From: Calditrichia bacterium
GTDB lineage: Bacteria; Calditrichota; Calditrichia; JAJRVZ01
DNA length: 64,000 nucleotides
Direction: 5' to 3'
Assembly (NCBI GenBank): GCA_963777955.1
Contig: CAVZSQ010000017.1
Location: 96,001-160,000, forward strand
Shown here: piece by piece, positions 3,891 to 20,365 of the stretch
Numbering within the stretch: position 1 is the stretch's first letter
How the letters are laid out: the number at the start of each line of letters is the position of its first letter
Translations under genes and position numbers: made by a program
The notes under the pieces: model-generated
Seen by the model: the letters and a program-made list of their open reading frames with translations, nothing else
Told to the model about the DNA's origin: nothing
Databases searched by the model: none

Positions 3891-6800
3891 ATGAATATTA
3901 AGGGGCAATACCAAAAGAGTTTTATACTTGTTGTTGTCGTACTGATTTACTTTTTGCACCTCTCGACACTTTATGCCCAGAAAGCCAGTGCAGAATTTAT
4001 CTCTACTATTATTCCCTCAAACTTAAATACGGGCCAGCAAGTCAAAGACGGCGTGCAAAATCTTACCTACAAGGACAATATTCTGTATGTAGTTAATGTT
4101 TGGGCTGGTATCCAGGTAATCGATGTGAGCAATGTTTATAAACCGAAAGAGATTGGACGTTATCAGAATGAACATCGCGCCCATAATTTATTCATCGATG
4201 ATAATTATGGCTACCTCTCCGATGAACTGGAAGGGGTCAGTATTCTGGACCTTTCCAATCCCACAGCCATCTCCCGCGTAGGCAAAATTCCCACTGAAGG
4301 TAATGCCTGGTGGGTCGAAGCGAACTTTCCTTATGTTTATATCGCCGAAGAAGAACGGGGAGTTACCGTATACAATATAACGGATGTGACCAATCCGATG
4401 CTCATCGGCAATTATGACACCCCCGGTTGGACCTGGGGATTGAATGTGCAGGGTGATTATGTATATGTAGCCGATAAAACCGGTGGACTATTGATCCTCG
4501 ACTTTACCGTAAAAGAATCCCCCGTCTTAGTCGGTCAATTCAAAGAACCCAGGCAGGCCAAAACGATCCAGATCGAAGATAATTATCTTTACCTTACCGA
4601 CGGACCCAATGGATTATTTATTCTTGATATCACCAATCCAAAATTCCCTGCTCTGGTCAGCCGGGTTAAAAGCGAAGGTTTTATTTTCAACGTTTTTAAA
4701 AGCGGAAAATACGCTTATCTGGCCAATGAATCTTTACGCCGTCTGGATATAGTCAGTTTAACCGATATAAAGAAGCCGGTTCTCGAAGCGAGTTATCAGG
4801 CGGACGATAAAATTTACAGCGTCTGGAAAAAGGATGTGTACGTTTTTGTCGCGGCTAATAGCAAGACGCTTATCCTGCGGCATAATAATCCTCCCGTACT
4901 GGCGGAAATTCCGGCCCAGACTGTTGATGAACAACAAGTACTTACAATTAAACCCGAAGGATATGATCCTGACGGCGATCCCATCTTCTATCGTGTAAAA
5001 AGTTTGCCTGACGGCGCCAGGTTCGATAGCACCAGCGGTGCTTTTAGCTGGACCCCGACGTATGATCAATCCGGACTCTATAAGAATGTAACGATCAGCA
5101 TCATTGAAAAAACAGATAGTAAACTGGCCACCAGTCAGACTTTTGATATTACGGTACAACATGTAAATCGCGCACCGGCACTTCCGGAAGTGGAAAATTA
5201 TACGGTTAGTGAAAATCAATCCCTCAGTTTTGAAATTAAAGAAGGGAGTGATCCGGATAAAGAGGATAAAGGTAAACTTGCCTACACCACCGAGAATTTG
5301 CCCGAGGGCGCAGTTTTTGATTCCCTGAAAAGAAAATTTACCTGGACGCCCAATTTTGACCAGTCCGGAACATATGCCCTCGATTTCATCGTCAAAGATC
5401 CCCCCGGTGCAACTGCCCGCGATGCCTCTACCATTACCGTGCTCCATGTGGATCGTAAACCGGTAATTGCGGCGATTGAAAATAAAACAGTTGACGAAAA
5501 TCAGAGTATGGAATTTACTGTCGAAGGCAGCGATCCGGATAAGGAGGATCAGAATATTATCGCTTACTCGGCCCGGAATCTGCCTAAAGGCGCTGTGTTT
5601 ACCGCTGCCAGACAACAGTTTGCCTGGACCCCATCCTATGACCAGGCCGGTGAATATCCAGACCTGTTATTTATCATTACCGCCGGTAAACAATCTGATT
5701 CGACCATGATGAATATTACCGTCAATAATATGAGCCGGCCACCTGTTCTGGAATCTATTGCAGCAAAAACCATCGATGAACAAAAACTCCTGTCTTTCAT
5801 GGTCAGTGCTACCGATCCTGATGCCGAAGATCAGCAGCGCCTGAAATTCACCGCACAGAATTTACCCCCGGGGGCAAAATTCAGCGCCGACTCGCTGCGT
5901 TTTAACTGGACCCCATCCTACGACCAGGCCGGCAGTTATGCGGAGATTTCCATAACGGTGACCGATCCTTTCGGTTTGAGTGACTCAAAATCTTTTACTA
6001 TTAATGTAAATAACATCAACCGGCCGCCGGTGCTGGCAGAAATACCGGCACAGATTGTGGACGAGGATAAACCATTGACCTTTACGGTGACCGGCAGCGA
6101 TCCCGATAAAGAGGATCAGGATAAATTAAAATACAGCGCAAAACAATTGCCGGCCGGAGCAACCCTGACAGATAACGTTTTTAACTGGACACCCGGTTAT
6201 GATCAATCAGGAGATTATGCGCCGCAAATTTCAATATCGGATGGTATCCTGTCAGATACAAAAACCGCGCAAATTACAGTAAAACACGTTAACCGTCCTC
6301 CTACCCTTGAACCGGTCATTGCCAAAACGGTCGATGAGAATAAAATTTTAGAATTTAAAATTACCGCCGGCGATCCGGATAAAGAAGATACCGGCCTGTG
6401 GAAATTAACCGTTGCCCAGTTACCTGAGGGCGCGGTTTTTGATCCGGCCACGGCTGATTTCAGCTGGACACCTAATTTTGACCAGTCAGGCCTGTATACA
6501 CTGAAGTTCACCAATACCGATCCGGCTGGATTGATTGCCGCCGAGGATGTTCAGGTAACCGTCAATCATGTAAACCGTACCCCTGTTTTCAATATCCTGA
6601 CCGCCCAGCCATTGGAAGAAAATACGCCTTTCAGTATGAACATCCCTGCCGGCGAGGATCCGGATAAAGAAGATGCGCAAAAATTGATTTATGCTGCACA
6701 AAATTTGCCGGAAGGTGCGACTTTTGACGCTGTGTCCCGCACCCTGTCCTGGACACCTTCCTATGCTCAGGCCGGTCAATACAATCTGAACATTTCATGC

Positions 6801-8031
6801 AGTGACGGCCCCTTCAGCGTAAAGCAACCTCTGAATCTGACAGTGAACAACATAAATCGTCCACCGGAAATCCAGTCGATCGCCGATCAAACAGTTGACG
6901 AAAATCAGGAACTTAATCTGCAGGTTATTTTCAGCGATCCCGACGAAGAAGATCAGGGCAAAATCCAATTAACAGCACTTAATATACCTGCCGGTGTGGA
7001 ATTTAATGATATAAACGGTGAACTGAGGCTGGAAACCTACATATGTACAGGCCGGAGTATATAATAATATTGAAATGACGGCAACCGATCCCGGTGGATT
7101 AATGATCAAGAAAAGTTTTAACATCACCGTTAATAATGTGAACAGACCGCCGTTGGTCAAACCGCTGGTCAAAACCACCATTGCCGAGAATACTCCTGTC
7201 AGCGTTACTGCCGAGGCGACAGATCCGGATCAGGAAGATGCCGGTAAATTACAATTTTCAGGCGATAATCTTCCCGCTGGAGCCACTCTGGAGCCCTCCG
7301 GCGGCACCTTCTCCTGGACCCCTGATTTTACCCAGGCCGGTGAATATACCGTCAATTTAAAAGTGACTGATAGCGGTAATCTGAGTGCTGAAACACCCCT
7401 GGCACTTTCGATCACCAATGTGAATCGTAATCCGGTTATCCAGCCTGTAGAAACCAAAGATATAAATGAAAATGAAACGGTAAAATTGAGTATAGCCGCC
7501 ACTGACGAAGATAAGGATGACCGCTTAAAATTCTCACTTGAAGAAGCACCACGTGGTGCTTCGATCAATGAGACCAGCGGCGAGTTGTCCTGGACTCCCG
7601 ATTATACCCAAGCGGGTGAATATGCATTTAAGGTTAAAGTCAACGATGGTACAATCGATGATGTCGCTATTGTAACCATAAATGTAAATAACGTAAATCG
7701 CAAACCTGATATTCAGGGTGTCAGTCCGGTGACAGCCACCGTCGGCGAATCTATTGAACTTAGTTTTAATGGTTCCGATCCTGACAATGATAAATTGACC
7801 TACCAGGTCTCGGGTTTACCGGCTGGCGCCAATTTTGACGTCAACAGCGGAAAATTCAGTTGGCAGCCGGGCGCTGACCAGGCCGGCTCATATAAATTTA
7901 CCGTAACCGTTTCCGACGGCACCGATTCGGCTGAGACGACAGCCGGCATCACGGTCAATCCGGCGGCAGTACCACCACCTGAACCCGTTCCGCCTGAATC
8001 AGCGCCACCGGAACAACCATCAACTCCGTAG
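3891..8031 (+). CDS. Large surface protein: LVIVD-repeat propeller + 11 tandem ~95-aa Ig/cadherin-like (He_PIG-type) repeats + Pro-rich tail; frameshift near 7030
   Basis: Signal peptide, repeated 'YAYVAD...GL.ILD', then repeats 'NRPP...DPDKED...LPEGA.FD...FSWTP.YDQ.G'. ORFs 3891-7064 and 7075-8031 join in the middle of a repeat. Confidence 0.85.
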
Positions 8032-9169: not shown

Positions 9170-9193
9170 GTCTAACTTAATTATATGTTAGGC
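9170..9193 (+). other. Putative attI site
   Basis: GTCTAAC-TTAATTATAT-GTTAGGC directly before the first cassette, with no attC hairpin. Confidence 0.6.
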
Positions 9194-9907: not shown

Positions 9908-10023
9908 GCCTAACACCGCAGTCCAGCGGACCCGCCTGAGGCGGGCCGGTTATACCTGGTCGATAAGCCGACCGCTTGTGGTCGGCTTATCGGCGCGGCG
10001 GCTTTTCCGTCGCGCCGTTAGAA
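9908..10023 (+). repeat. Composite attC (GCCTAAC...GATAAGC + mini-unit ...GTTAGAA)
   Basis: R'' 9908-9914, CCCGCC/GGCGGG core, candidate R' sites at 9962 and 10017. Confidence 0.75.
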
Positions 10024-10035
10024 TTTGGAGGTTTT

Positions 10036-10445
10036 ATGAGATCTGTTATTTTCTTAGAATTGTGTGTATTGCTTTGTTTATTATTTGGTTGTAATCCAAG
10101 TTATGTTAGTATGACACCAGAGCAAAGAAAAGAGCAATCCATTAAAGACTATGAGACAACTCAAAAAATGATAAATGAAGGGAAAATTACTTTTGAAGGT
10201 GGGGATGGTTCTTCAGAAGAAAATGCAATCATAATAAAGGGTACAACTAAGTCAAAATATGGTATAAAAGTCGAGTACATATATATTATGATGAAGCATA
10301 GTAATGGAGATAATGATTGGGAAATTATATCACAAGCTCTGGAGGAAATGATAGAAAAAAATATGATATATTCACTATAAAGAATAAAAAAACAGACGAA
10401 GAAAAAATATATTGTTTTGACATTACTAAATATTTTGGCAGATAG
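10036..10445 (+). CDS. Cassette lipoprotein, hypothetical (frameshift near 10350)
   Basis: Lipobox 'LFGC', 'GGDGSSEENAIII'; other frame ends 'YCFDITKYFGR*'. Confidence 0.7.
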
Positions 10446-10470
10446 AATAAATATATTATTGATCATTAAT

Positions 10471-10603
10471 TTCGCGAATTCATGTTTGAGTCCGGCAATA
10501 GCCGGACGAGTTTGAATTCGTCGAAGGTCTTTTTGCCTACTTTTTGGCCAGTCAAAAAGTCAGCCGCCGGAGGCGGAATAAGTTTATAAGAAATCAAATT
10601 TGG
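10471..10603 (+). repeat. Three-hairpin non-coding element, copy 1 (3' of a cassette ORF)
   Basis: TTCGCGAATTCA..GTCCGGC-AATA-GCCGGAC..TGAATTCGTCGAA; ACTTTTTGGC/GTCAAAAAGT; CCGCC-GGA-GGCGG. Confidence 0.9.
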
Positions 10604-10702
10604 CTCTAACACCACGCTCAAGTAGAGGACAACGAACCGGTTGAACGTGAATTGTAAAATGTGTGGAAATCGGTTTACGCCGGCTACCGTTGGTCGTTAG
10701 GT
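10604..10702 (+). repeat. attC
   Basis: CTCTAAC...GTTAGGT, long central region shared with other sites. Confidence 0.75.
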
Positions 10703-10723
10703 AGAAAAATTGAGGTGAAAAAT

Positions 10724-11264
10724 ATGTTTATCAAAAAGAATTTCTATTTTTGGATATTAATCATGTTTCTATTATTAAACTCAAATAATTTTGCTCAGGA
10801 TACACTTAATTATAGGCATTATAATTTTGGATTCGGAGTTACCTTACTAAAAGATTATACGTTTTATTTCCCGATATTTATTACAAATAATATCAAAATG
10901 GAACCGGAACTCTACTATCGTCGTGATTCAGATCCTTATCATGATCAGGAAAGTACAGAGTTAGAAATTGGTACAGGATTATTTTATTCGCGGCACTATT
11001 CTCAATTAAATATTTATTCGGGTTTGAGAGCGGTCTATAGTTTTTATAATAGCTGGGACAAGTATGAGGGAATCGAACTTGGTCCGACTTTAGGGGGTGA
11101 GTATTTTTTAGTCTGCTCGTTTCAGTCTTGGCACTGAAATGCAACTTAAATATTATCATCATAGGTACTCTTCCAGAAATGACCGCCAAGTTCCCCTTAA
11201 AGGTGTTACGAGAAGTGGTATCTGGACATATGCTTATTTCATTATGAGAATTTATTTGTTTTAA
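10724..11264 (+). CDS. Cassette small outer-membrane beta-barrel protein (frameshift near 11110)
   Basis: Signal peptide, alternating beta strands, 'GGEYF..RFSLGTEMQL', C-terminal Phe. Confidence 0.7.
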
Positions 11265-11290
11265 TTTTACAATTAAATATTTAGGTACTT

Positions 11291-11352
11291 GTCTATCAAG
11301 CGCTTTAAATCGAACCCGCCTTTGGCGGGCCGGTTATACCTGGTCGATAGAA
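11291..11352 (+). repeat. attC with non-canonical ATC/GAT core
   Basis: GTCTATC...CCCGCC-TTT-GGCGGG...GATAGAA. Confidence 0.75.
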
Positions 11353-11541
11353 GTGGAGAATATTTGAGAAGAATTAATTATAGATAGAATTGGTTTTGAA
11401 GTTCGCGAATTCATGTTTGAGTCCGGCAGTAGCCGGGCGAGTTTGAATTCGCGAAGGGTTTTTTTGCCTACTTTTTGACCAGACAAAAAGTAGGTCGCCG
11501 AAGGCGAAATAGTTATATAATTAATTAATTTTGGCTCTAAC
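11346..11541 (+). repeat. ORF-less cassette carrying hairpin element copy 2
   Basis: Between two attC sites, no credible + strand ORF, AT-rich leader nearly identical to those at 12994 and 17303. Confidence 0.85.
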
Positions 11542-11628
11542 AAACATTTGTTGTGGACGCCGAACCGACCAGCTTGAAATATAGAATATGCTAAGCCATC
11601 AGGCGCCTGTGACTTTTTGTCATTAAAC
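11535..11628 (+). repeat. attC (degenerate R', ATTAAAC)
   Basis: CTCTAAC-AAACATTTG...GTGACTTTTTGTC-ATTAAAC. Confidence 0.6.
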
Positions 11629-11640
11629 TTAGGACAATTT

Positions 11641-12085
11641 ATGAGAATATTTTATCTTTTAATTGTGCTTATTTCATTTTTTTCGAAAATCTTTGCTCAA
11701 ACTGAATCTGATTCTATTACTGTAACTGCGCTCGCCAGATCAGAAATTTCAATAATACAACTATTAGCTGATCTGGGGAAAATATCATAATTATGAGATC
11801 ATTGTTTCCGGATTTATGCACTTAAATTTTGAAGATCATGCTATTTATTTTTCCAAAAATCATGCAGATTTTTTGATTGGATCTGATGCTTTTTGGATTG
11901 ATTTTTCTGATACAGTAAAAGTTTTCGATATGGATATTAGTAATTCTAAAGTTGTTGGATTGAAAGATTTGAAAAATTTGAATAATAAATATGTAACTCT
12001 AAAAGGAATTTTTAATAAAAATAATAATGGACATCTAGCTTCATACTCAGGTGCTATAGAAAATATTACTGAAATACATGAGTGA
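11641..12085 (+). CDS. Cassette secreted hypothetical protein (frameshift near 11780)
   Basis: Signal peptide 'MRIFYLL...IFAQ', 'SIIQLLAD', continuing in another frame 'KYHNYEIIVSGFMHLNFE...YVTLKGIF...GHLASYSGAI'. Confidence 0.65.
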
Positions 12086-12177
12086 TTTAAAGACGGTATG
12101 ATGGATCTAAAGAATTAATTGGTATTGATAAAGCAACCGGTAAACTCGTACCTCTTGATTCAACAACAAATAAATAA

Positions 12178-12273
12178 GTCTAACCTGGGTATAAAGTTAA
12201 ACCTTCACGCGCCGGCTTTTCGCTAAGTTAAGTTATGTCAAGCGTTCGATCAACTTATACTTTGCAGATAAGC
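12178..12273 (+). repeat. attC (R' = GATAAGC)
   Basis: GTCTAAC..GTATAAAGTT...AACTTATAC..GATAAGC. Confidence 0.65.
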
Positions 12274-12304
12274 CCATTAATTAAAAATAAATTATTATAA
12301 AAAA

Positions 12305-12921
12305 ATGATTATTGAGACAAATACGATCAAATTAACTGAATTTAGTTAAAATGATGTCAAAGATATTATAAATCAATTAAATAATTCAAACTGTGAAATT
12401 ATAATTTTAGGTAAATCAAAATACGAATTTATTCAAGGTGCAAATAATGAGAATAAAGAATTTCAAATAGAAATTAGTGAACAAAAAAATAATGTGATAG
12501 AGTTCGTCGAACAATTAGATACATTTTATAATTAATGAAGTCAAAACACTTTTTATTCAATATTATAGAAATGATTCGACTTGGACTGAGAAATTTAAAA
12601 TGGAAGATTATATTAATAAGAAATGGTTACTTTTTAAGTGATAGTGCTAGAAAGGTATGCTTAATATTTGGTGCAATTTTACTCGTGGTGTACTTCGCTA
12701 TTCGTATAAATATTCCTGATAGTTCGTTAAGAAATATTTTGGGATTAAAGTGGTACTATTATCTGACCATATGTTGAAGTTTAATTTCTCTTGGGACTGG
12801 TCATGAGTTAAAAAACTTGAAAAATAATGAGGGAAATAACCAGGTTTATACAGTTGGAACGTGGATTGCGACAGCAATTTTACTTATAGTAAGTTTTTTG
12901 TCATTAGTTGGCATCATTTAA
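12305..12921 (+). pseudogene. Degraded cassette gene (membrane protein)
   Basis: Several in-frame stops and shifts; fragment 12535-12777 and a hydrophobic tail ending just before the next attC. Confidence 0.5.
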
Positions 12922-13000
12922 ATCTATCACCGGCCTCAACCAGATTCTGGCTTTGCCTGCCTGGCGACAGGTCGGGGCCGGTTATGCCTGGTCGTTAAAG
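12922..13000 (+). repeat. attC (R'' = ATCTATC)
   Basis: ATCTATC-ACCGGCCTCAACC...CCGGTTATGCCTGGTC-GTTAAAG. Confidence 0.75.
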
Positions 13001-13167
13001 GTGGAAAATATTTGAGAAGAATTAATTAAAAATAGAATTGGTTTTGAAGTTCGGTAGCCGGACGAGTTTGAATTGGTCGCAGATCCTTTTGCTGACTTTT
13101 TGGCCAGTCAAAAAGTAAGCCGCCGGAGGCGGGAATAAGTTTATAAGAAATCAAATTTGGCTCTAAC
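12994..13167 (+). repeat. ORF-less cassette carrying hairpin element copy 3 (5' arm of hairpin 1 deleted)
   Basis: Same leader as 11346 and same tail as 10581; lacks most of CGAATTCATGTTTGAGTCCGGC. Confidence 0.85.
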
Positions 13168-13278
13168 AAACATTTGTAGTGGACGGCGAACCGACAAGCA
13201 AGAATTGTAAATTTTGTGGTAAGTGGCTTACCACCACTAAAATATACCATCGCAAGGTAACTTTATTTTTCATTAGGA
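13161..13278 (+). repeat. attC (right end uncertain)
   Basis: CTCTAAC-AAACATTTGTAGTGG...CCACTAAAAT; probable R' ATTAGGA at 13272. Confidence 0.6.
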
Positions 13279-13282
13279 ATCT

Positions 13283-13822
13283 ATGGAGACAGATCTTAAG
13301 AAGATAAAGCATTTCGGCGAAAGACGTAGGAGAGAAAATTTTGCTTTTCGAGCATTTTTGAAAAACCTTGATATCAGTACAAAGAAATTAGATACACTTG
13401 TTTGTACTATTTTTCATGAAGTTTCATCTCAAATTGATTGTAAGAAATGTGCCAATTGCTGTAAACAGATGAAAATTATTTTAACAAATCAAGATATAAG
13501 AAGATTAGCAGATGGGCTAGATCTTCAATTAAAATCATTTAAAAACCAATACACAAGTTTAAGTGAAGATAAATCTGAGATCTATTTTAGTAAAATACCA
13601 TGTCCACTTTTAAAAGATAATCTTTGCTCAAAATATAAGTTCAGACCTACAGATTGTCGTTCATTTCCTCATCTGGAAAAACGAATATTTGTGTCAAGAC
13701 TCTGGGATGTTGTAGATAATTATTCGATCTGCCCGATTGTTTTTAATGTATATGAAATTCTCAAGAATAATTTATGTCCATATAAGGAATATGATATTTA
13801 TAACGAATATGAAATGTATTAA
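13283..13822 (+). CDS. YkgJ-family cysteine-cluster (CxxCxxCC) protein
   Basis: 'CKKCANCC', 'CPLLKDNLCSKYKFRPTDCRSFP'. Confidence 0.9.
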   Translation: METDLKKIKHFGERRRRENFAFRAFLKNLDISTKKLDTLVCTIFHEVSSQIDCKKCANCCKQMKIILTNQDIRRLADGLDLQLKSFKNQYTSLSEDKSEIYFSKIPCPLLKDNLCSKYKFRPTDCRSFPHLEKRIFVSRLWDVVDNYSICPIVFNVYEILKNNLCPYKEYDIYNEYEMY

Positions 13823-13827
13823 AATCT

Positions 13828-13914
13828 ACCTAACAAGTGCTTCAAATCGGACGCCGAACCAATAAGCATGAATTGCTAAATTGGTGTGACGGCTCTTCCG
13901 CCGCGCCGTTAGAC
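13828..13914 (+). repeat. attC
   Basis: ACCTAAC...CCGCGCC-GTTAGAC. Confidence 0.75.
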
Positions 13915-13943
13915 GCGCTTTCATATTAAAAATCAATTTATAT

Positions 13944-13972
13944 TTGAAATAGCAAAAGAAAACCCATAAAAT
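13944..13972 (+). promoter_or_regulatory. Sigma70-like promoter of the TA cassette
   Basis: TTGAAA-17 bp-TAAAAT, ATG 5 nt downstream. Confidence 0.6.
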
Positions 13973-13977
13973 TATAT

Positions 13978-14229
13978 ATGCCTACGATTCTTTTTATAGA
14001 TGGGTGGCGTTTTTTCTTCTACTCAAATGAGAAGAGGGAACCCATACATGTTCATGTGCAGAAGGGAGAGAAAGAGTGCAAATATTGGTTGGATCGTATT
14101 AATTTTGAAGTTACCGAAGCGTATTCATTTCAAATGAATAATAGAGACAAACGTATAGTAAAAAAGATTATATTTGAATACTTTGAAGTGATTGAAAAAG
14201 AATGGGACAAGTTTCAAGAGAGTAAATAA
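13978..14229 (+). CDS. DUF4160 protein (putative TA component)
   Basis: 'MPTILFIDGWRFFFYSNE.REPIHVHV..GEKECKYWL'. Confidence 0.88.
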   Translation: MPTILFIDGWRFFFYSNEKREPIHVHVQKGEKECKYWLDRINFEVTEAYSFQMNNRDKRIVKKIIFEYFEVIEKEWDKFQESK

Positions 14230-14230
14230 A

Positions 14231-14494
14231 ATGAAAATATATCATCGTATAAAGAATATTCGATTTCAAGAGGATAGACTTGTAATCAATATTGATAATA
14301 AAAATTATTCGTTTGAATTAATAAAAATATCCAAAAAGTTGCTGAATGCCACAAAAAAAGATAGAAATCAATATATTATTTCTCCATCAGGTTATGGAAT
14401 TAATTGGCCGACGTTAGAAGAAGATCTATCAATAGATGGATTGTTAGGAATAATTCATAAACCAACAGCAGTAAAGAAACAGCTATCATTTTAA
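14231..14494 (+). CDS. DUF2442 protein (putative TA partner)
   Basis: 'ISPSGYGINWPTLEEDLSIDGLLG'; adjacent to DUF4160. Confidence 0.88.
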   Translation: MKIYHRIKNIRFQEDRLVINIDNKNYSFELIKISKKLLNATKKDRNQYIISPSGYGINWPTLEEDLSIDGLLGIIHKPTAVKKQLSF

Positions 14495-14499
14495 GGTAC

Positions 14500-14562
14500 G
14501 TCTAACACCGGCCTCAACCGAATCCCGACAAAGTCGGGACCGATTATGCCGCGCCGTTAGAA
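14500..14562 (+). repeat. attC (short, canonical)
   Basis: GTCTAAC..TCCCGAC-AAA-GTCGGGA..GTTAGAA. Confidence 0.85.
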
Positions 14563-14566
14563 GGAA

Positions 14567-14980
14567 ATGAGAATGGGAACACTACTTCATAAATGCATGG
14601 TTAAGGCGACAATTAAAGAAGGTGAGAAGATTCGTAGTTCATTGAATTGGGCTTTTTCACGAAGAGAAATGCTTTATGTGATGTCTGATTCATTAAGATG
14701 CGGTGATTGGGAAATACCGTATTCGGAAATCGAGGATTCAAAAATTTATTCTGTACCATGGCTTTTTACTAATGCCTATGTACTTGTAGTGAAAATCAAG
14801 GGACAAATATATCAATTTGGATTAAATCCAGGACGATTTTGGAAAGGAGATCTTCCTTTTCCAGTGAAACGAGAAACTCTAGATAATCGATATTGGAATA
14901 TTGTTAATCTTATCAGAATTATTATATTTGGTCTCTTAGCTTATTGGATCATAAATGAAATAATTAAAAAATACTTCTAA
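14567..14980 (+). CDS. Cassette hypothetical protein with C-terminal TM helix
   Basis: ORF fills the cassette; stop codon overlaps R'' TTCTAAC. Confidence 0.75.
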   Translation: MRMGTLLHKCMVKATIKEGEKIRSSLNWAFSRREMLYVMSDSLRCGDWEIPYSEIEDSKIYSVPWLFTNAYVLVVKIKGQIYQFGLNPGRFWKGDLPFPVKRETLDNRYWNIVNLIRIIIFGLLAYWIINEIIKKYF

Positions 14981-15069
14981 CAATGGCATCAACCGGACGC
15001 CCAGCCGACTAGCGTGAATTGCTAAAATATGTTAAGTGGCTGGTCGCCGGTTATGCCTGGTCGGCGGAC
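14975..15069 (+). repeat. attC whose right end is joined to non-canonical sequence (G|GCGGAC)
   Basis: TTCTAAC..GGCATCAACCGG...CCGGTTATGCCTGGTC-G. Confidence 0.75.
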
Positions 15070-15089
15070 AGAGGGATCAGAGCAAGCGC

Positions 15090-15503
15090 ATGTGGTTGAC
15101 CGACGGGATACGTAGCCTCGTTGCCCGATACAGGTTCAATCGGACCTATGGGCGGCACCTGGGTGTCCTGTCGGTCACGGACGAGAAGCTGGCGCTCGGC
15201 CGCTACCGCTTGCATGGCACGACGACCGTTCTCGAGAACGACTGGCGCGTACCCTGGCAGAAGATCAGAAAGATCCAAGCGTACAAGCGGGACTGCTATA
15301 TCGTGGACCTCATCTGTCTCGCCCTCGAAACCGAAGATGGCCGGCAGTTCGAGGTCAACGAGGAGATGGATGGCTGGCGGGAGATGCAGGGCGCACTGGC
15401 GGCACGGTTCGGAATCCAAGAGGACGCGTGGTTCGTAGAGGTCGCTGTTCCCGCGTTCGCGACGAATCTGAAGACACTCTGGGCACGTGAAGGAGAAGCG
15501 TAG
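15090..15503 (+). CDS. High-GC hypothetical protein in the cassette array
   Basis: GC-ending codons; 'VPWQKIRKIQAYKRD...EVNEEMDGW...VAVPAFATN'. Confidence 0.75.
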   Translation: MWLTDGIRSLVARYRFNRTYGRHLGVLSVTDEKLALGRYRLHGTTTVLENDWRVPWQKIRKIQAYKRDCYIVDLICLALETEDGRQFEVNEEMDGWREMQGALAARFGIQEDAWFVEVAVPAFATNLKTLWAREGEA

Positions 15504-15547
15504 GTGGCATTCACCGGAGGCGGAATAAGTCAAAACTAATAAATTAA

Positions 15548-15608
15548 CTCTAACACTTCAGTCCACAGGACCTGCTTTAAGCAGGCCGGTGACTTTCGGT
15601 CATTAGTA
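15548..15608 (+). repeat. attC (degenerate R', ATTAGTA)
   Basis: CTCTAAC..AGTCCAC..CCTGC/GCAGG..GTGACT. Confidence 0.75.
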
Positions 15609-15625
15609 TACATTTTAGGAGAGAT

Positions 15626-16174
15626 ATGACAAAATCCTTCATTTCTATTTTAGTTATACTTCTATTTTATTCATGTTCAAAACCGATAGCGAATCTACAA
15701 CCCACTCAAAATGGAAGCTATTTCATAAAAGATTTCGGTTTTGAAATTACTTTACCTGAAAGTTGGATTCACAGCGAGGTAACAAGAAACGGCTCTGTTA
15801 CAGATTATAATTTTGTAAGAAAAGGAATTAAAGACAATACTGGATTATTAGTTTCACCATTTATTGGTATTATGTGTGAAAAGGTTACGAAGGATTTAAA
15901 TGTTCTTTTTTATTCAATGGCAAAAAGAGCACAATTTGTACCTTGGAATTTAGAAACTGTACTTACTGCTGAGAGTAAGGATTTCCCACTTGTGTATGGA
16001 ATTGGGTATATCGGTACATATAATGATGCAAACAATTTAGAACATAAAATTATTATTCTACATATGATAAATGACACAAATGGAATTCAAATAATAATTG
16101 ATGGGACTACTTCAATTTATGAAATCATGAAAAATGAATATTTAAGTATTATTTCATCAATTGTTTTAAAATAG
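15626..16174 (+). CDS. Cassette lipoprotein, hypothetical
   Basis: AGGAG RBS, lipobox 'FYSC', 'FGFEITLPESW'. Confidence 0.75.
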   Translation: MTKSFISILVILLFYSCSKPIANLQPTQNGSYFIKDFGFEITLPESWIHSEVTRNGSVTDYNFVRKGIKDNTGLLVSPFIGIMCEKVTKDLNVLFYSMAKRAQFVPWNLETVLTAESKDFPLVYGIGYIGTYNDANNLEHKIIILHMINDTNGIQIIIDGTTSIYEIMKNEYLSIISSIVLK

Positions 16175-16180
16175 TATGAA

Positions 16181-16241
16181 TGCTAACACTGGCCCCAACC
16201 GGACCTGCCTGAAGCAGGCCGGTTATGCCTGGTCGATAGAA
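16181..16241 (+). repeat. attC (R' = GATAGAA)
   Basis: TGCTAAC..CAACCGG-ACCTGC/GCAGG-CCGGTTATGCC..GATAGAA. Confidence 0.8.
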
Positions 16242-16250
16242 TGAAATAAG

Positions 16251-17096
16251 TTGAATTTATTGCCTATGCAAGACTATCAATATAGTAAAATGGCTAGAAA
16301 GAAATTTGCATATACTGTAATATATCTCCTAATATTATTTCATATTCTTGTGCTTATAATTATCCCAGTACTATTCGCTACTAATAAAGAGTTTGGATCA
16401 CAGGTACAAGGCGTTGTACATGGGTATATTGTATTTTATAATGCTATGATTGAGTGGGAGAATATGTACTTGGTTTTAGTTATGTGTAGCGCAATAGTTA
16501 TTGCAATAGTCGTTGAACTAATATTATTAATAATTCAGTATAATATTCACCAAATAAAATTAAAGAAAATAATAATTATAGTTTCCACTTGCTTTACAAT
16601 AGTTACAATTGATTTTATATTAGAGCACCCAACATTATTAGGATATGATATATTATTTCCGAAGTCAATTATTACTAAGTATGAATATGCATCGAATGAG
16701 TATAATAATTCTCTTGCTCCTGAAGACAAATATGAAATATACAACTTACTTATCAAATTCCCTTCTGATGTTTTTATATATGATAGTCTTCATAATAATG
16801 CTGGATTTAGGGGTTTATGGAGGCAGTACAGTATACCAATTGATCCCGATGTCCAAAGTATATTTAGAGAATATTGGGCGAAAACCAATGGTAAAGGTAA
16901 ATTTATTTCGAAATATTCATTAGAAGATCATGGTTGTCGTTTTGTATTTTCTCCAATAAAAAAAATTGGAAATAAAATAATTATAGGATGTGCGTATACA
17001 TGTGCTCCGCTTATAGGAAAAGGTTGGTATAGTGAAATAGAGAAAGTCAATAATAAATGGATTATTATAAAAGAACATCTTCTATGGGTATCTTAA
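16251..17096 (+). CDS. Cassette membrane protein (3 N-terminal TM segments + soluble domain)
   Basis: Hydrophobic segments; C-terminal 'CAPLIGKGW...KVNNKWII..LLWVS'. Start uncertain. Confidence 0.7.
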   Translation: MNLLPMQDYQYSKMARKKFAYTVIYLLILFHILVLIIIPVLFATNKEFGSQVQGVVHGYIVFYNAMIEWENMYLVLVMCSAIVIAIVVELILLIIQYNIHQIKLKKIIIIVSTCFTIVTIDFILEHPTLLGYDILFPKSIITKYEYASNEYNNSLAPEDKYEIYNLLIKFPSDVFIYDSLHNNAGFRGLWRQYSIPIDPDVQSIFREYWAKTNGKGKFISKYSLEDHGCRFVFSPIKKIGNKIIIGCAYTCAPLIGKGWYSEIEKVNNKWIIIKEHLLWVS

Positions 17097-17214
17097 ACGT
17101 TATACAACTAAAATCGTTATATGAAATAAAAGTAATATATAAAAACAAATTGCCGGATTAATATCAATTAATTCTGATGACTAACAAAATTATGCTGATA
17201 TAATTGATTTTATT

Positions 17215-17309
17215 TACTAACACCGGCCTCAACCGGACGCCCAGCCGACTAGAGTGAAATGCTAAGTTGGGTTAAGTGGCTGGTCGCCGGTTATCCCTGG
17301 TCGATAGAA
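17215..17309 (+). repeat. attC (R' = GATAGAA)
   Basis: TACTAAC..., near-identical to the 14975 site. Confidence 0.8.
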
Positions 17310-17560
17310 GTGGAAAATATTTGAGGAGAATTAATTAAAAATAGAATTGGTTTTGAAGTTCGCGAATTCATGTTTGAGTCCGGCAGTAGCCGGACGAGTT
17401 TGAATTCGTCGCAAATTTTTTTGCCTGTTCCTCGCTAGAGTTTATCCCGTTGAAAAACGGGACGGGGACAAGTTTTGGCCAGACAATAAAAATGCCCCCG
17501 CGAAAGCGGGGGTAGGCCGCCGGAGGCGAAATAATTCTAAATTACACGAATTTGACTCTA
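17303..17560 (+). repeat. Empty-cassette backbone with hairpin element copy 4, carrying two inserted mini-hairpins
   Basis: Aligns with 11346-11541 except inserts at about 17427-17472 and 17487-17512; ends at CTCTA with no attC. Confidence 0.85.
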
Positions 17561-17573
17561 CGGATCAACGGGT

Positions 17574-17962
17574 ATGACTAAACAGCAAGCGATTTCCGTC
17601 GCAACATTGAAGGCAATTGTTGATGCGTTCAACGCCCACGACCTGGACGCCATCATGGAGTTCTTTGCCGACGATTGCTCGTTAGACATGCCTCGGGGAC
17701 CGGATCCCTGGGGTAAACCTTCACGGGCAAAGCAGCCGTGCGAGAAGGCTTAGCGATACGCTTCAAGGATCTCCCGGACGTTCACTACAGTGACGACCGG
17801 CACTGGGTCAGCGGCAACATGGGCATGTCCGAATGGCTACTAACCGGCACAACGCCCGACGGAGTCCGAATTGAGGTACGTGGATGCGACCATTGGGAAT
17901 TCCGAGAAGGGAAGGTAATTAAGAAAGACTCGTACTGGAAGATCGTTGATAAATCCCTGTGA
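17574..17962 (+). CDS. SnoaL-like/NTF2 family protein (frameshift near 17718)
   Basis: 'IVDAFNAHDLDAIMEFFADDC...PRGPDPWG' joined to 'VREGLA.RF...EVRGCD.WEFREGKVIKKDSYWK'. Confidence 0.85.
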
Positions 17963-17971
17963 GTGTCAGCG

Positions 17972-18749
17972 CTCTAACATGATATGTAAGTGTGAACCCG
18001 AAGCATAGTAGATTTATAAATTATTGGCTTATTTCTTTATTATGATGATCAGATTGATGAGCCTTAAAGAATCATCCAAAATTTTGGAAAAATTTATGGA
18101 GAAGGTAAGTTTGTTTTTTATCTTCGCTAAAGGCTTCAAAGGGTGAATGCCGACTTCTAGGCGATTATTTTCCACGGCGACAGTTTAACCCTAATGATTC
18201 TGTAACAGTCGGTTTTGAGATGTGGTATGAGTTTTATCACGGCTAACCGTAATAGTATTTCGACCATAAAGGAAAAGCAGGATGTCGACGAGCGTATCTC
18301 ACATTCATTACTTTTCAACCAGATCGAATGAAGTAATTTTCATTACAGGTTCGTTTCAATCATGGATTTTAGGGGATGGAATAAATTAACATTATATGTG
18401 GCCTATAAGATTATCGATTTAAAGATGCTGCAAGATAGAATACTTTATGAATTCAGTTCAAGGATTAATGAAGAATTGTCACCCATTACCATTGGTCGTG
18501 GTGTGATATCATGTATATTTTATACAAGTATAATGGACATTTTGGGAAATTTACCATGGTTCCTCCGTGCATCCAAATTTATGCGCCACAATATTATTGC
18601 AATAATTGCAAAAGATACTACGCTCCCACAGATGTCATTTCAGCGAAACTAGAAGGTATTATTATTTATTTGGATATAGAATATCTGAAAATGATCAAGA
18701 TAGAATATTATTTTCAAATATTTTTGATGTTGTTAAAGAATAAAGGTTC
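17972..18749 (+). pseudogene. Truncated attC (CTCTAAC) followed by decayed cassette sequence
   Basis: Only short fragmentary ORFs; no recognisable R'. Confidence 0.4.
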
Positions 18750-18811
18750 GCCGATCACCTTAGTCCACTGGATCCCGACCTGTCGGGGCTAGTGACTTTC
18801 GGTCGTTGGGC
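18750..18811 (+). repeat. attC (degenerate R'', GCCGATC)
   Basis: AGTCCACTGG-ATCCCGAC/GTCGGG..AGTGACT..GTTGGGC. Confidence 0.75.
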
Positions 18812-18831
18812 ACTAGTAAATAGAGATATAT

Positions 18832-19200
18832 ATGAAATCCTACACACCGATAAACTTAAAAGAAAAACTATTAAAAATAGGGGAATTGTGGTCCCCGAAA
18901 GTAATTGCAGAGATAAATGATTACCAAATAAAATTAGTAAATATAATGGGTGAATTTGTCTGGCATGACCATAAAGAAACCGATGAAGTGTTTATTGTCC
19001 TTTCTGGTGAGATGATTATTGAATTTAGGGATGGTATAGCCCACCTTAATACAGGTGAGTTATTTGTTGTTAAAAAAGGAATCGAACATCGTCCTCGAGC
19101 AAAAGATATCTGTAAAATCATGGTAATAGAGCCTCGGGATGTAGTAAATACTGGTGATGCTGGGGGTACATTAACTGCACAAAATAATATATGGATCTAG
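18832..19200 (+). CDS. Cupin domain protein
   Basis: 'GEFVWHDHKETDEVFIVLSG...GELFVVKKGIEHRP'. Confidence 0.92.
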   Translation: MKSYTPINLKEKLLKIGELWSPKVIAEINDYQIKLVNIMGEFVWHDHKETDEVFIVLSGEMIIEFRDGIAHLNTGELFVVKKGIEHRPRAKDICKIMVIEPRDVVNTGDAGGTLTAQNNIWI

Positions 19201-19232
19201 CGCCAGAACGTTAAAATTAAAATTAATTGGAT

Positions 19233-19388
19233 TGTCCCGTCAGGGACAAAATATTTGTGGAAAAACAATGTCACCCTAATTTATGTATAGTGCCGTCAGG
19301 CCTGGCGGGAAATATGTCGTCCCTGGCGGGACTACAACAAATTATGGGAGATTTTTCGATCTAGAAATATTTCATCCCTGACGGGATG
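19233..19388. repeat. REP/REPIN-like cluster of four short palindromes
   Basis: GTCCCGTCAGGGAC, GTGCCGTCAGGC, GTCCCTGGCGGGAC, ATCCCTGACGGGAT in inverted pairs. Confidence 0.7.
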
Positions 19389-19443
19389 TTGATTGATAAT
19401 CATTAATATTTAATTACGTTAAAAAAGGGAATCTTTGCATTGC

Positions 19444-19505
19444 GTCTAACACCGCAGTCCACTGGGTCCGCCAGCTGGCGGGCCAGTGACTTTCGGTAGT
19501 TAGAC
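19444..19505 (+). repeat. attC (canonical)
   Basis: GTCTAAC..AGTC[C]ACTGG..CCGCC/GGCGG..CCAGTGACT..GTTAGAC. Confidence 0.9.
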
Positions 19506-19699
19506 TTGGAACTTATTTATAGAAGGATAAAATTTCTCGGGGTTTTTTGAATTTGGCGAATTTATGTTTGAGTCCGGCGTAAGCCGGACGAGTTTAAATT
19601 CGCCTTGATTTTTTGCTTACTTTTTGATCAAGCAAAAAGTAAGCCGCCGGAGGCATTAAAACGAATTTAGATATATAAATATGAAAGCCAAATCCTAAC
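19499..19699 (+). repeat. ORF-less cassette carrying divergent hairpin element copy 5
   Basis: Different flanks; core 19555-19654 with compensatory substitutions. Confidence 0.85.
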
Positions 19700-19787
19700 A
19701 CCGGCCTAAACCGGACGCCGAACCGACTAGCATGAAATGTAAATTTTGTGGTAAGTGGTTCGCCGCCACTAAAATGTACCGTTAAAA
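19693..19787 (+). repeat. attC (chimeric arms)
   Basis: TCCTAAC...GTTAAAA. Confidence 0.75.
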
Positions 19788-19848: not shown

Positions 19849-19862
19849 AAATTGAGGTGCTA

Positions 19863-20105
19863 ATGAAAACTATAAGTGTAACAAATGCAAGATCTAAACT
19901 ATATAAATTATTGGACGAAACAAATACTTCCGGCGAACCAATTCAGATTACCGGAAAACGATCAAACGGGATATTGATTTCAGAGGCTGATTGGCGAGCC
20001 ATTAGCGAGACCTTATTTCTCTTATCTATACCTGGTATGCGTGAATCTATTCGGAAAGGATTGAAGGAACCTATTGAAAAATGTGCGCCGGAGATTAAAT
20101 GGTAA
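19863..20105 (+). CDS. yefM: Phd/YefM antitoxin
   Basis: 'ISVTNARSKLYKLLDE...PIQITGKR..ILISE.DW.AI.ETLFLLSIPGM'. Confidence 0.93.
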   Translation: MKTISVTNARSKLYKLLDETNTSGEPIQITGKRSNGILISEADWRAISETLFLLSIPGMRESIRKGLKEPIEKCAPEIKW

Positions 20106-20365
20106 AATGGAAGCTGGTTTATACGAAACAGGCTCAAAAAGATGCAAAAAAAATATCAGCGGTAAATCTTGAGGAAAAAGCTATTGAGGTTCTAAAAATC
20201 CTTGCCGAGAATCCATTTAAGTCCTCTCCAGCGTATGAAAAACTTGTTGGTGACTTGACGGGAGCATATTCCAGAAGAATCAATATTCAACATAGAGTTG
20301 TTTATCAAATATACGAGAAAGAACATATTGTAAAAATTATTCGGATGTGGACGCATTACGAATAA
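20099..20365 (+). CDS. yoeB: Txe/YoeB toxin
   Basis: 'EKLVGDLTGAYSRRINIQHRVVY...MWTHYE'. Confidence 0.95.
   Translation: MVKWKLVYTKQAQKDAKKISAVNLEEKAIEVLKILAENPFKSSPAYEKLVGDLTGAYSRRINIQHRVVYQIYEKEHIVKIIRMWTHYE

Follow-up and report, generated by a model that had tools for sequence, protein, structure and literature searches.

A putative triplex–pseudoknot repeat, possibly a priming signal, carried in gene-less integron cassettes of a Calditrichia bacterium

BoxC, PIT and TM_ECO are dispersed, intergenic three-block repeats that can form intrastrand triplexes, have no mobility gene and are of unknown function, as far as the accessible text of their survey goes (Holder et al. 2015, PMC4666352). 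REP/REPIN-RAYT systems and MITEs (miniature transposable elements with inverted repeats) are non-autonomous, multi-copy and hairpin-rich and occur as inverted doublets (accessible parts of PMC2817692 and PMC3184786), and units without an open reading frame (ORF) lie between attC sites, repeated in chromosomal integron arrays, in Vibrio and Treponema (accessible parts of 10.1101/2023.11.21.568050 and PMC6557892). Here we analyse a structured repeat that recurs as the cargo of gene-less cassettes in a 64,000-nt stretch of a Calditrichia bacterium genome (contig CAVZSQ010000017.1, positions 96,001 to 160,000; hereafter the window), within an array of attC-like sites that has no adjacent integrase. 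The element codes for no protein and, as its contexts show, travels in differing vehicles: it belongs to a repeat family that has both a cassette lineage and MITE vehicles, and its copies covary as a triplex and a pseudoknot on one folding strand. We read the cargo as a member of a widespread non-autonomous family kept by selection on its single-stranded fold, possibly as a priming signal, a reading that we hold, taken whole, at a little short of even.

An earlier note on this DNA had reported five copies and a 3' remnant of an element with three hairpins, H1, H2 and H3, and a T-tract between the first two. All six lie where that note had placed them, on the + strand (Table 1), and a profile search of the genome contigs finds no further copy in the window. 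A pattern of core plus T-tract has 15 matches in the genome and none in the reversed genome. The intact copies 1, 2 and 5 fold far better than shuffled sequences (z of -4.9 to -7.4 as RNA and of -6.4 to -9.4 as DNA), and copy 3, without its H1 5' arm, reaches a z of -0.7. The quoted paired changes are borne out in an alignment of nine genome copies, at columns 15/49 (UA in six, CG in three) and 72/97 (CG in four, UA in three). The three-hairpin description omits the triplex, in which the T-tract is the third strand on H2, and the pseudoknot; and the GTCCGGC-N4-GCCGGAC cap, taken to be a fixed part of H1, lies outside the conserved core, other copies having swapped it or having an AT-rich loop.

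The comparative evidence for the fold comes from 293 unique elements, parsed from core-bearing loci and from this genome, which yield 232 unique 3' domains. Because T was prescribed by the search patterns for positions one to three of both T-tract and H2 arm (one to four in one set), only later positions are informative. At position 4, the triples are T.TA in 168 of the 232 domains, C.CG in 50, C.TG and T.TG in four each and C.TA in one; at position 5, they are T.TA in 140, C.CG in 45, T.CG and C.TA in two each, and others in the 26 where short tracts end. At the true register, 101 of 139 pairs have a C above C-G, compared with 4, 3 and 8 at shifts of -1, +1 and +2, and with a mean of 31.6 and a maximum of 47 over 2000 shuffles. 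The position of the C in the triplex differs among copies within single genomes. This covariation shows the T-tract as the predicted third strand of a pyrimidine triplex on H2, with T.A-T and C.G-C triples in the major groove.

The linker, furthermore, can form at least four Watson–Crick pairs with the H2 loop in 157 of the 232 domains (shuffled mean 45, maximum 64) and in 88 of the 154 distinct types (against 20). This pairing abuts the T-tract in 138 of 198 cases, and the paired sequences are many and different. The 3' domain is, as predicted from these comparisons, an H-type pseudoknot with its first loop set into the H2 major groove, and a class IV intrastrand triplex under the scheme given in the accessible text of PMC4666352. 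On the 5' side, stem P1 averages 7.5 pairs (2.7 when shuffled, n=268), and H1 is invariant in its internal loop, TGTYYGAG/CGAGTT, which lies below a variable tip and within which tandem G.A pairs may form, closed by T.G (236) or C-G (57). Wobbles in P1 are asymmetric, with 16 G.T against three A.C and 22 G.A against no T.C, and one H2 position has T-A in 109 elements and T.G in 63; the wobble asymmetry shows the + strand to be the one predicted to fold.

The element works like an intrastrand-triplex repeat, and membership in BoxC fails on class and composition. In contrast to BoxC, PIT and TM_ECO, it is A/T-rich and has the class IV pyrimidine motif (third strand, Y, R) on the folding strand, a class that the accessible text of the survey gives as the rarest, at 4% (PMC4666352). 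It also adds a pseudoknot and a conserved internal-loop domain, and the word 'pseudoknot' is absent from the main text of that survey. Unlike REP/RAYT systems it has no GT(A/G)G head and no linked RAYT gene, and unlike MITEs the bare element has no terminal inverted repeats, the MITE ends belonging to the vehicle; it rides in MITEs and in cassettes and is neither. Whereas the Vibrio and Treponema cassettes are assigned promoter activity in the accessible parts of their reports, the present element is a structured repeat that lies mostly outside integrons and has no conserved promoter. No published description of it was found in a literature search that covered few subscription papers and the main text of PMC4666352; the element is a genuine one of unusual structure that, within the literature searched, seems not to have been described.

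In all, 23 copies are present in the genome: an nhmmer search yields 21 at E<1e-10, to which two truncated ones, accepted on inspection, are added. Element-only cassettes make up eight (window copies 2-5 and those named C21, C23, C27a and C27b), one (copy 1) stands behind a cassette gene, two form an inverted doublet that starts 31 bp past the stop codon of intI (L013:3332-3600, contig C20 of this genome, G000), and 12 have no nearby attC; an adjacent attC is absent at 14 of the 23. Positions no more than 100 bp from a strong attC make up about 1% of the non-coding DNA, so that nine cassette-borne copies in 23 are an enrichment, though one that does not stand for nine separate events. Cassette copies have homologous leaders and trailers, and this extends to the sister genome G043 (z up to 12.7); free copies for the most part have others (z no higher than 2.2 for leaders and 3.3 for trailers), from which we infer that one or few captures founded the cassette lineage, which then multiplied and recombined. 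Shuffled combinations of leader, trailer and attC are seen, and G043 has cassette-like copies without an upstream attC. Copy 5 had been described as having unrelated flanks, which is true of its 3' flank relative to copies 1-4 and not of its 5' flank, which resembles a cassette leader in G043 (z 5.8-6.5) and, weakly, the leader of copy 2 (z 2.5-2.8). In contigs from an unrelated wetland sequencing run, the element is followed by different trailers and attC sites, and searches of two DNA sequencing runs did not find the window array, only related element–attC junctions. At three sites, free copies occupy the same place in G000 and G043. Five of the nine cassette copies are damaged by deletion or insertions, and many of the window copies are decaying passengers.

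The tie between element and cassettes that the earlier note had drawn is real for the cassette lineage, but most copies in the genome, and nearly all elsewhere, lie off attC, several of them in MITEs. This dispersal is among the outcomes that the note had held against its own view, which is half contradicted by it; another, a match to a described family, was not found in the window at the Rfam gathering score.

Beyond this genome, five phyla or more have related copies, some free and some within MITEs of three families that are unrelated to one another. The covariance model R1 finds the element in 25 of 86 genomes of the phylum, a figure that may be a lower bound, as H3 and some outer pairs are misregistered in the model. 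A pattern scan of species genomes gives at least 120 loci, from Bacteroidota, Pseudomonadota, Bdellovibrionota, Bacillota and Calditrichota, and its matches include a named Calditrichota record (L186). The 3' module is present in 17 of 81 genomes of one order and in 6 of 61 of another and, by BLAST, in Ralstonia, Burkholderia and Ilyobacter replicons. The distribution is patchy, since the strict pattern has no match in 150 sampled genomes of the phylum of G090; a window copy as query matched nothing in plasmids, and one Burkholderiales triplex module as query matched nothing in E. coli. Plasmid hits in one search derived from flanking DNA and not from the element, and were discarded. An attC-like site lies near 4 of 284 elements of other genomes by a model that was built from the window array and would miss other attC types, and only the G043 case is convincing.

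Among the MITE vehicles, that of G063 is 232-235 bp long, has 13-bp inverted ends and holds the core mid-way; of its 14 loci, 13 have both ends matched, and 12 of these 13 show an 8-bp target duplication that is exact. G084 has a 382-bp MITE with different ends and two 8-bp duplications recognized by eye, and a third family occurs in G021, G022 and G029. Around the 23 copies of the present genome, no terminal inverted repeats with target duplication were seen by eye, and none of 80 loci of other phyla has an inverted pair framed by a duplication longer than 2 bp. In G063, G021 and G029, one MITE end pair encloses several unrelated hairpin cargos, and the shell seems to collect structured repeats (L417-L436, L457-L476). 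G038 and G039 have tandem arrays of the element with a 400-480-bp period, mixed with short tandem repeats (L071-L074).

A possible role is suggested by the internal loop. At positions 1330-1344 of ColE1 (NC_001371), about 90 nt downstream of the origin region, there is an exact 15-nt match to YYGAG-C-GNA-G-CGAGT, for which the chance expectation is 0.16 even at two mismatches, and the gap between genes F and G of phiX174 (NC_001422) holds a version with three mismatches. We take these segments to be the PriA-dependent primosome assembly sites n'-pas or ssiA. The element has the internal-loop sequence in common with the ColE1 site, which is exact for the short-tip form, the window tip being longer; it differs in being a chromosomal repeat in which the motif forms an internal loop, in many cases below a tip that is long or unpaired, and is joined to a triplex pseudoknot, which was not seen by eye at ColE1. 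The 19-nt short-tip core occurs at 117 or more viral loci, against five for the reversed pattern. Among the matches listed there are 70 distinct viral contexts, of which 45 are without P1 and nine have the downstream triplex pattern. Rep-type helicase frames lie beside or over the core in three viral contigs and a phage integrase in one (45 frames scanned, most without a family). One of the viral contexts matches CTX-type phages and fs2, and the intergenic regions of pre-CTX and fs2 have the core with a 4-nt loop; in these phages the host converts single-stranded DNA (ssDNA) to double-stranded DNA, according to the accessible part of PMC4439123, in which neither the motif nor PriA is named. 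As separate observations among the viral matches, three tandem cores stand in a 2.2-kb contig with a Rep-type helicase frame (L506:601-737), and a stand-alone core with a common 9-nt 5' flank occurs in five phage contigs (L490, L522, L536, L564 and L578, near position 601), lying in L536 about 30 nt past a phage integrase frame.

If the folding molecule is DNA, the internal-loop core could be a host priming signal of the n'-pas/PriA type that favours its carriers, a proposal that we put forward tentatively. As its contexts indicate, the element was captured between attC sites in this genus once or a few times, and the cassette then multiplied and was shuffled, presumably by IntI; in other genera it sits in MITEs with terminal inverted repeats. 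An exposed strand, whether lagging template or an intermediate of recombination or transposition, would recruit the restart primosome, while the triplex knot would hold the priming site folded and resistant to single-stranded DNA-binding protein and exonucleases, and carriers would thereby be helped to complete second-strand synthesis and to be copied. In its fullest form, which we consider doubtful, this would make the element a portable PriA-type site locked by a DNA triple-helix pseudoknot, spread across phyla by aiding the copying of its carriers and here the payload of an integron cassette, rather than a gene or a promoter.

Several points weigh against this proposal. The copies are related, many of them from Pontibacter, and shuffle controls overstate significance. 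The phiX174 version is not above chance (1.0 expected). Window copies have a 7-bp stem in place of the GC-GNA-GC tip common to ColE1, some relatives have an unpaired AT-rich loop at the tip position, and the pattern does not match the core in 22 of 49 triplex modules, some of which have variant tips. The commonest viral contexts of the core, which fall within an open frame in a single lineage, are perhaps not signals, and the core strand is gene-sense in pre-CTX (as judged from rstR) and antisense to all genes in fs2. A lagging-template bias of the triplex module is absent (21 of 34 in G156 and 2 of 7 in G134, with the terminus assumed to lie opposite dnaA). IntI recombines the attC bottom strand, and the folded strand of the element is the attC top strand. 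Finally, no mobilizing protein for the element was found among neighbouring frames or between close pairs.

Three interpretations had been offered for these cassettes, of which we favour a non-autonomous ssDNA element packaged as a cassette; a structured non-coding RNA (ncRNA) is possible and comes second, and a promoter or terminator module is unsupported. Read as RNA, the same fold would be an ncRNA or a shield of transcript 3' ends, with a U.A-U triple-helix pseudoknot like those of telomerase or ENE, and the cassette would supply an RNA-stabilizing or processing module to the array transcript. The layout does resemble the telomerase pseudoknot, T.G wobbles are frequent at one H2 position (63 of 178), and all nine cassette copies point in the array sense direction, although, as these stem from few captures, their common orientation does not amount to nine events. 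Pyrimidine-motif intrastrand triplexes form in RNA too, in the accessible text of PMC4666352, which likewise tells against a DNA-based role. Rfam gives nothing at gathering score in the window and, at relaxed E-values in 55 loci of relatives, nothing on the core or third strand; the sole overlap with the element is RF02421 (Bp1_684), over 12 nt in three loci of one genome. That family, a Burkholderia candidate small RNA (sRNA) detected by reverse-transcription PCR (accessible part of Khoo et al. 2012, PMC3521395), starts on the folding strand with the purine arm of the triplex and the H3 of a Burkholderiales relative, yet its 12 nt of triplex come without third strand, pseudoknot or core and it does not match the window copies; the accessible part of the report describes it as an sRNA and makes no mention of repeats, and the detection method probably cannot separate an sRNA from read-through. 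The loops, by contrast, argue for DNA. Short P2 tips are C(GAA)G in 39 cases, C(GCA)G in 29, C(GTA)G in 15 and C(GGA)G in 10, and C(GTCA/GTTCA/GGTCA)G accounts for another 68; GNA triloops on 2-bp stems exceed GNRA tetraloops by 93 to three, and this dominance favours folding as ssDNA. GNA triloops alone form a DNA mini-hairpin, whose RNA counterpart melts far lower, and loops of this type are present at the G4 origin, ssiA and N4 promoters (accessible part of PMC13037366). In the rest of the element, its own strand has 134 GNA hairpins and the opposite strand 38 (18 versus 28 in distant DNA), with 15 and six GNRA loops. Further, orientation to the flanking genes, which are crude longest-frame calls, is unbiased (84 of 147, p=0.10), and the core stands alone in ssDNA-type replicons. 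We accordingly place DNA clearly ahead of RNA and consider folding as ssDNA probable, and action of the fold as RNA unlikely.

A second alternative grants the DNA fold and dispenses with priming. The element would be a selfish repeat of REP- or BoxC-like kind, its fold serving just to be recognized by a single-strand nuclease encoded at an unlinked place (of HUH/RAYT, GIY-YIG or DUF559 type); it would resemble priming sites through convergence, tandem G.A below a GNA loop being a highly stable DNA motif, and would have landed in cassettes and MITEs as neutral places. The same MITE ends hold other hairpin cargos, including BoxC-like ones, inverted element doublets 270-580 bp apart resemble REPINs, and REPs have the same GCGAAGC-type loops (accessible part of PMC2817692). 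The damage to over half of the cassette copies fits this as well, and the genome encodes four Y1-transposase-family proteins; however, none of the four hits lies near any copy, no protein family recurs among 1520 neighbouring frames of 293 elements, and no partner recurs between 33 close element pairs, where one IS110-like frame and a repeated transporter-like gene were judged unrelated. There is no GTAG head, and the match of 15-19 nt to ColE1 and phage intergenic DNA covers unpaired positions. We judge such a repeat rather unlikely. An ORF-less regulatory cassette, a promoter or terminator tuning array expression as in Vibrio and Treponema, appears very improbable. Most tested gene-less Vibrio cassettes have sense promoter activity, with promoters that are not identifiable in silico (accessible part of 10.1101/2023.11.21.568050), oral ORF-less cassettes have promoter activity as well (accessible part of PMC6557892), and the AT-rich leader has a nearly fixed length (56-57 nt) in several diverged cassettes. 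Even so, sigma-70-like sites are not in excess (50 versus 46.4 +/- 6.0), and the leader has one in only one of five copies (copy 5). H3 with its T-run reads as a minus-strand terminator in four of five copies and then faces against the array. A regulatory role also leaves the triple covariation unexplained, and the core is kept mainly outside integrons.

As the earlier note had stated for three copies, copies 2, 3 and 5 each fill a unit flanked by attC-like sites with nothing else in it; these units measure about 189, 167 and 193 bp, and for copies 3 and 5 the 3' site was assigned by eye. The unit of copy 3 starts at 12994, and the copy 4 cassette, of about 250 bp, ends downstream in an R'' remnant near 17553. 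A GTTRRRY-type core site with a downstream attC in the same orientation is found for copies 2, 3, 5, C21, C23, C27a and C27b, four of the flanking sites among those bounds having been assigned by eye. The attC model is a position-specific scoring matrix (PSSM) for which 15 sites of the window were used; it scores 51 hits in the genome and 13 once the genome is reversed. Unlike the 3' site of C23, which folds canonically, those of copies 1, 2, 3 and 5 do not take the fold of canonical attC bottom strands; energy folding often mispredicts long attC sites. The intI gene on contig C20, whose locus is the only one to suggest a link of the element to intI, is split over three frames in the assembly, each piece falling under the family cut-off. 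The 13-mer of the attI-like site that heads the window array recurs 5' of the first cassette beside this intI and 5' of the element cassette on C21, so that two integrase-less arrays, the window's and that at G000:C21:182926, begin with a copy of it.

Table 1. Element copies and recombination sites in the window (PSSM, position-specific scoring matrix)
Feature	Position	Strand	Details
attI-like site heading the array	9175..9193	+	13-mer, 3 genome matches
Copy 1, in 3' end of gene-bearing cassette	10471..10576	+	Genome profile/pattern match
Copy 1, core	10483-10490 / 10507-10512	+	
Copy 1, third strand; H2; H3	10530-10535; 10536-10563; 10564-10576	+	
attC-like site 3' of copy 1	10604..10700	+	Non-canonical fold
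attC-like site 5' of copy 2	11291..11350	+	G of R' at 11346
ORF-less cassette 2	11346..11626	+	56-nt AT-rich leader, element, ~30-nt trailer, attC-like site 11535-11626
Copy 2, intact	11402..11507	+	Fold, pseudoknot parse, pattern match
Copy 2, core	11414-11421 / 11438-11443	+	
Copy 2, pseudoknot	11457-11459 with 11478-11480	+	
Copy 2, third strand; H2; H3	to 11466; 11467-11494; 11495-11507	+	GAA triloop in H3
attC site 5' of copy 3	12922..12998	+	G of R' at 12994
Copy 3	13050..13132	+	Deletion of the H1 5' arm; H3 and triplex domain present
attC-like site 3' of copy 3	13161..13250	+	R' decayed; by eye, missed by PSSM
3' remnant	15512..15547	+	H3 and cassette trailer, then attC 15548-15606
attC site 5' of copy 4	17215..17307	+	G of R' at 17303
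Copy 4	17359..17529	+	Both H2 arms have small hairpin insertions
Canonical attC site 5' of copy 5	19444..19503	+	Bottom-strand z -6.8
Copy 5, intact	19555..19654	+	Fold, pseudoknot parse, pattern match
Copy 5, core	19565-19572 / 19589-19594	+	
Copy 5, pseudoknot	19604-19609 with 19627-19632	+	6 bp
Copy 5, third strand; H2 arms; H3	19610-19614; 19616-19625 and 19634-19643; 19644-19654	+	
attC-like site 3' of copy 5	19692..19787	+	Halves from two attC families; by eye

The array has further features of its own. Many attC-like sites at 9908-19787 are mosaics of two attC families, one supplying the 5' half and one the 3' half, and bear the same small interchangeable hairpins as the H1 caps. A second type of gene-less cassette is represented by a tiny ORF-less unit at 9958-10017, which is bounded by an attC and another R' site; its hairpin is found again on C27 and at the start of the cassette that comes first after attI on C20. 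Another hairpin repeat family lies at 19225-19395 in the 3' region of a cupin cassette. There are two-gene cassettes with DUF4160-DUF2442 (13978-14494), which we presume to be a toxin–antitoxin-like pair, and with YefM-YoeB (19857-20365). Elsewhere in the window, a large Ig/cadherin-repeat surface protein is split across two frames (3891-8031; 1057 and 318 aa), and window proteins have sorting domains of the type IX secretion system (T9SS), which, like the Calditrichota record among the pattern matches, are in keeping with the assignment to Calditrichota.

These results touch on the role of gene-less integron cassettes, on the persistence of intrastrand-triplex repeats in bacteria and on selection acting on DNA tertiary folds. 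The three-way covariation of T.A-T and C.G-C triples, together with the pseudoknot, is strong comparative evidence for such a fold, and the making of non-coding chromosomal repeats into cassettes bears on how cassettes originate. The match to plasmid and phage origin regions makes the proposed function testable by a standard ssi assay. Should the priming idea fail, there would still be an uncatalogued family of structured repeats with an unusual fold; were a priming cassette confirmed, it would provide a natural DNA tertiary structure supported by covariation and a new class of function for gene-less cassettes.

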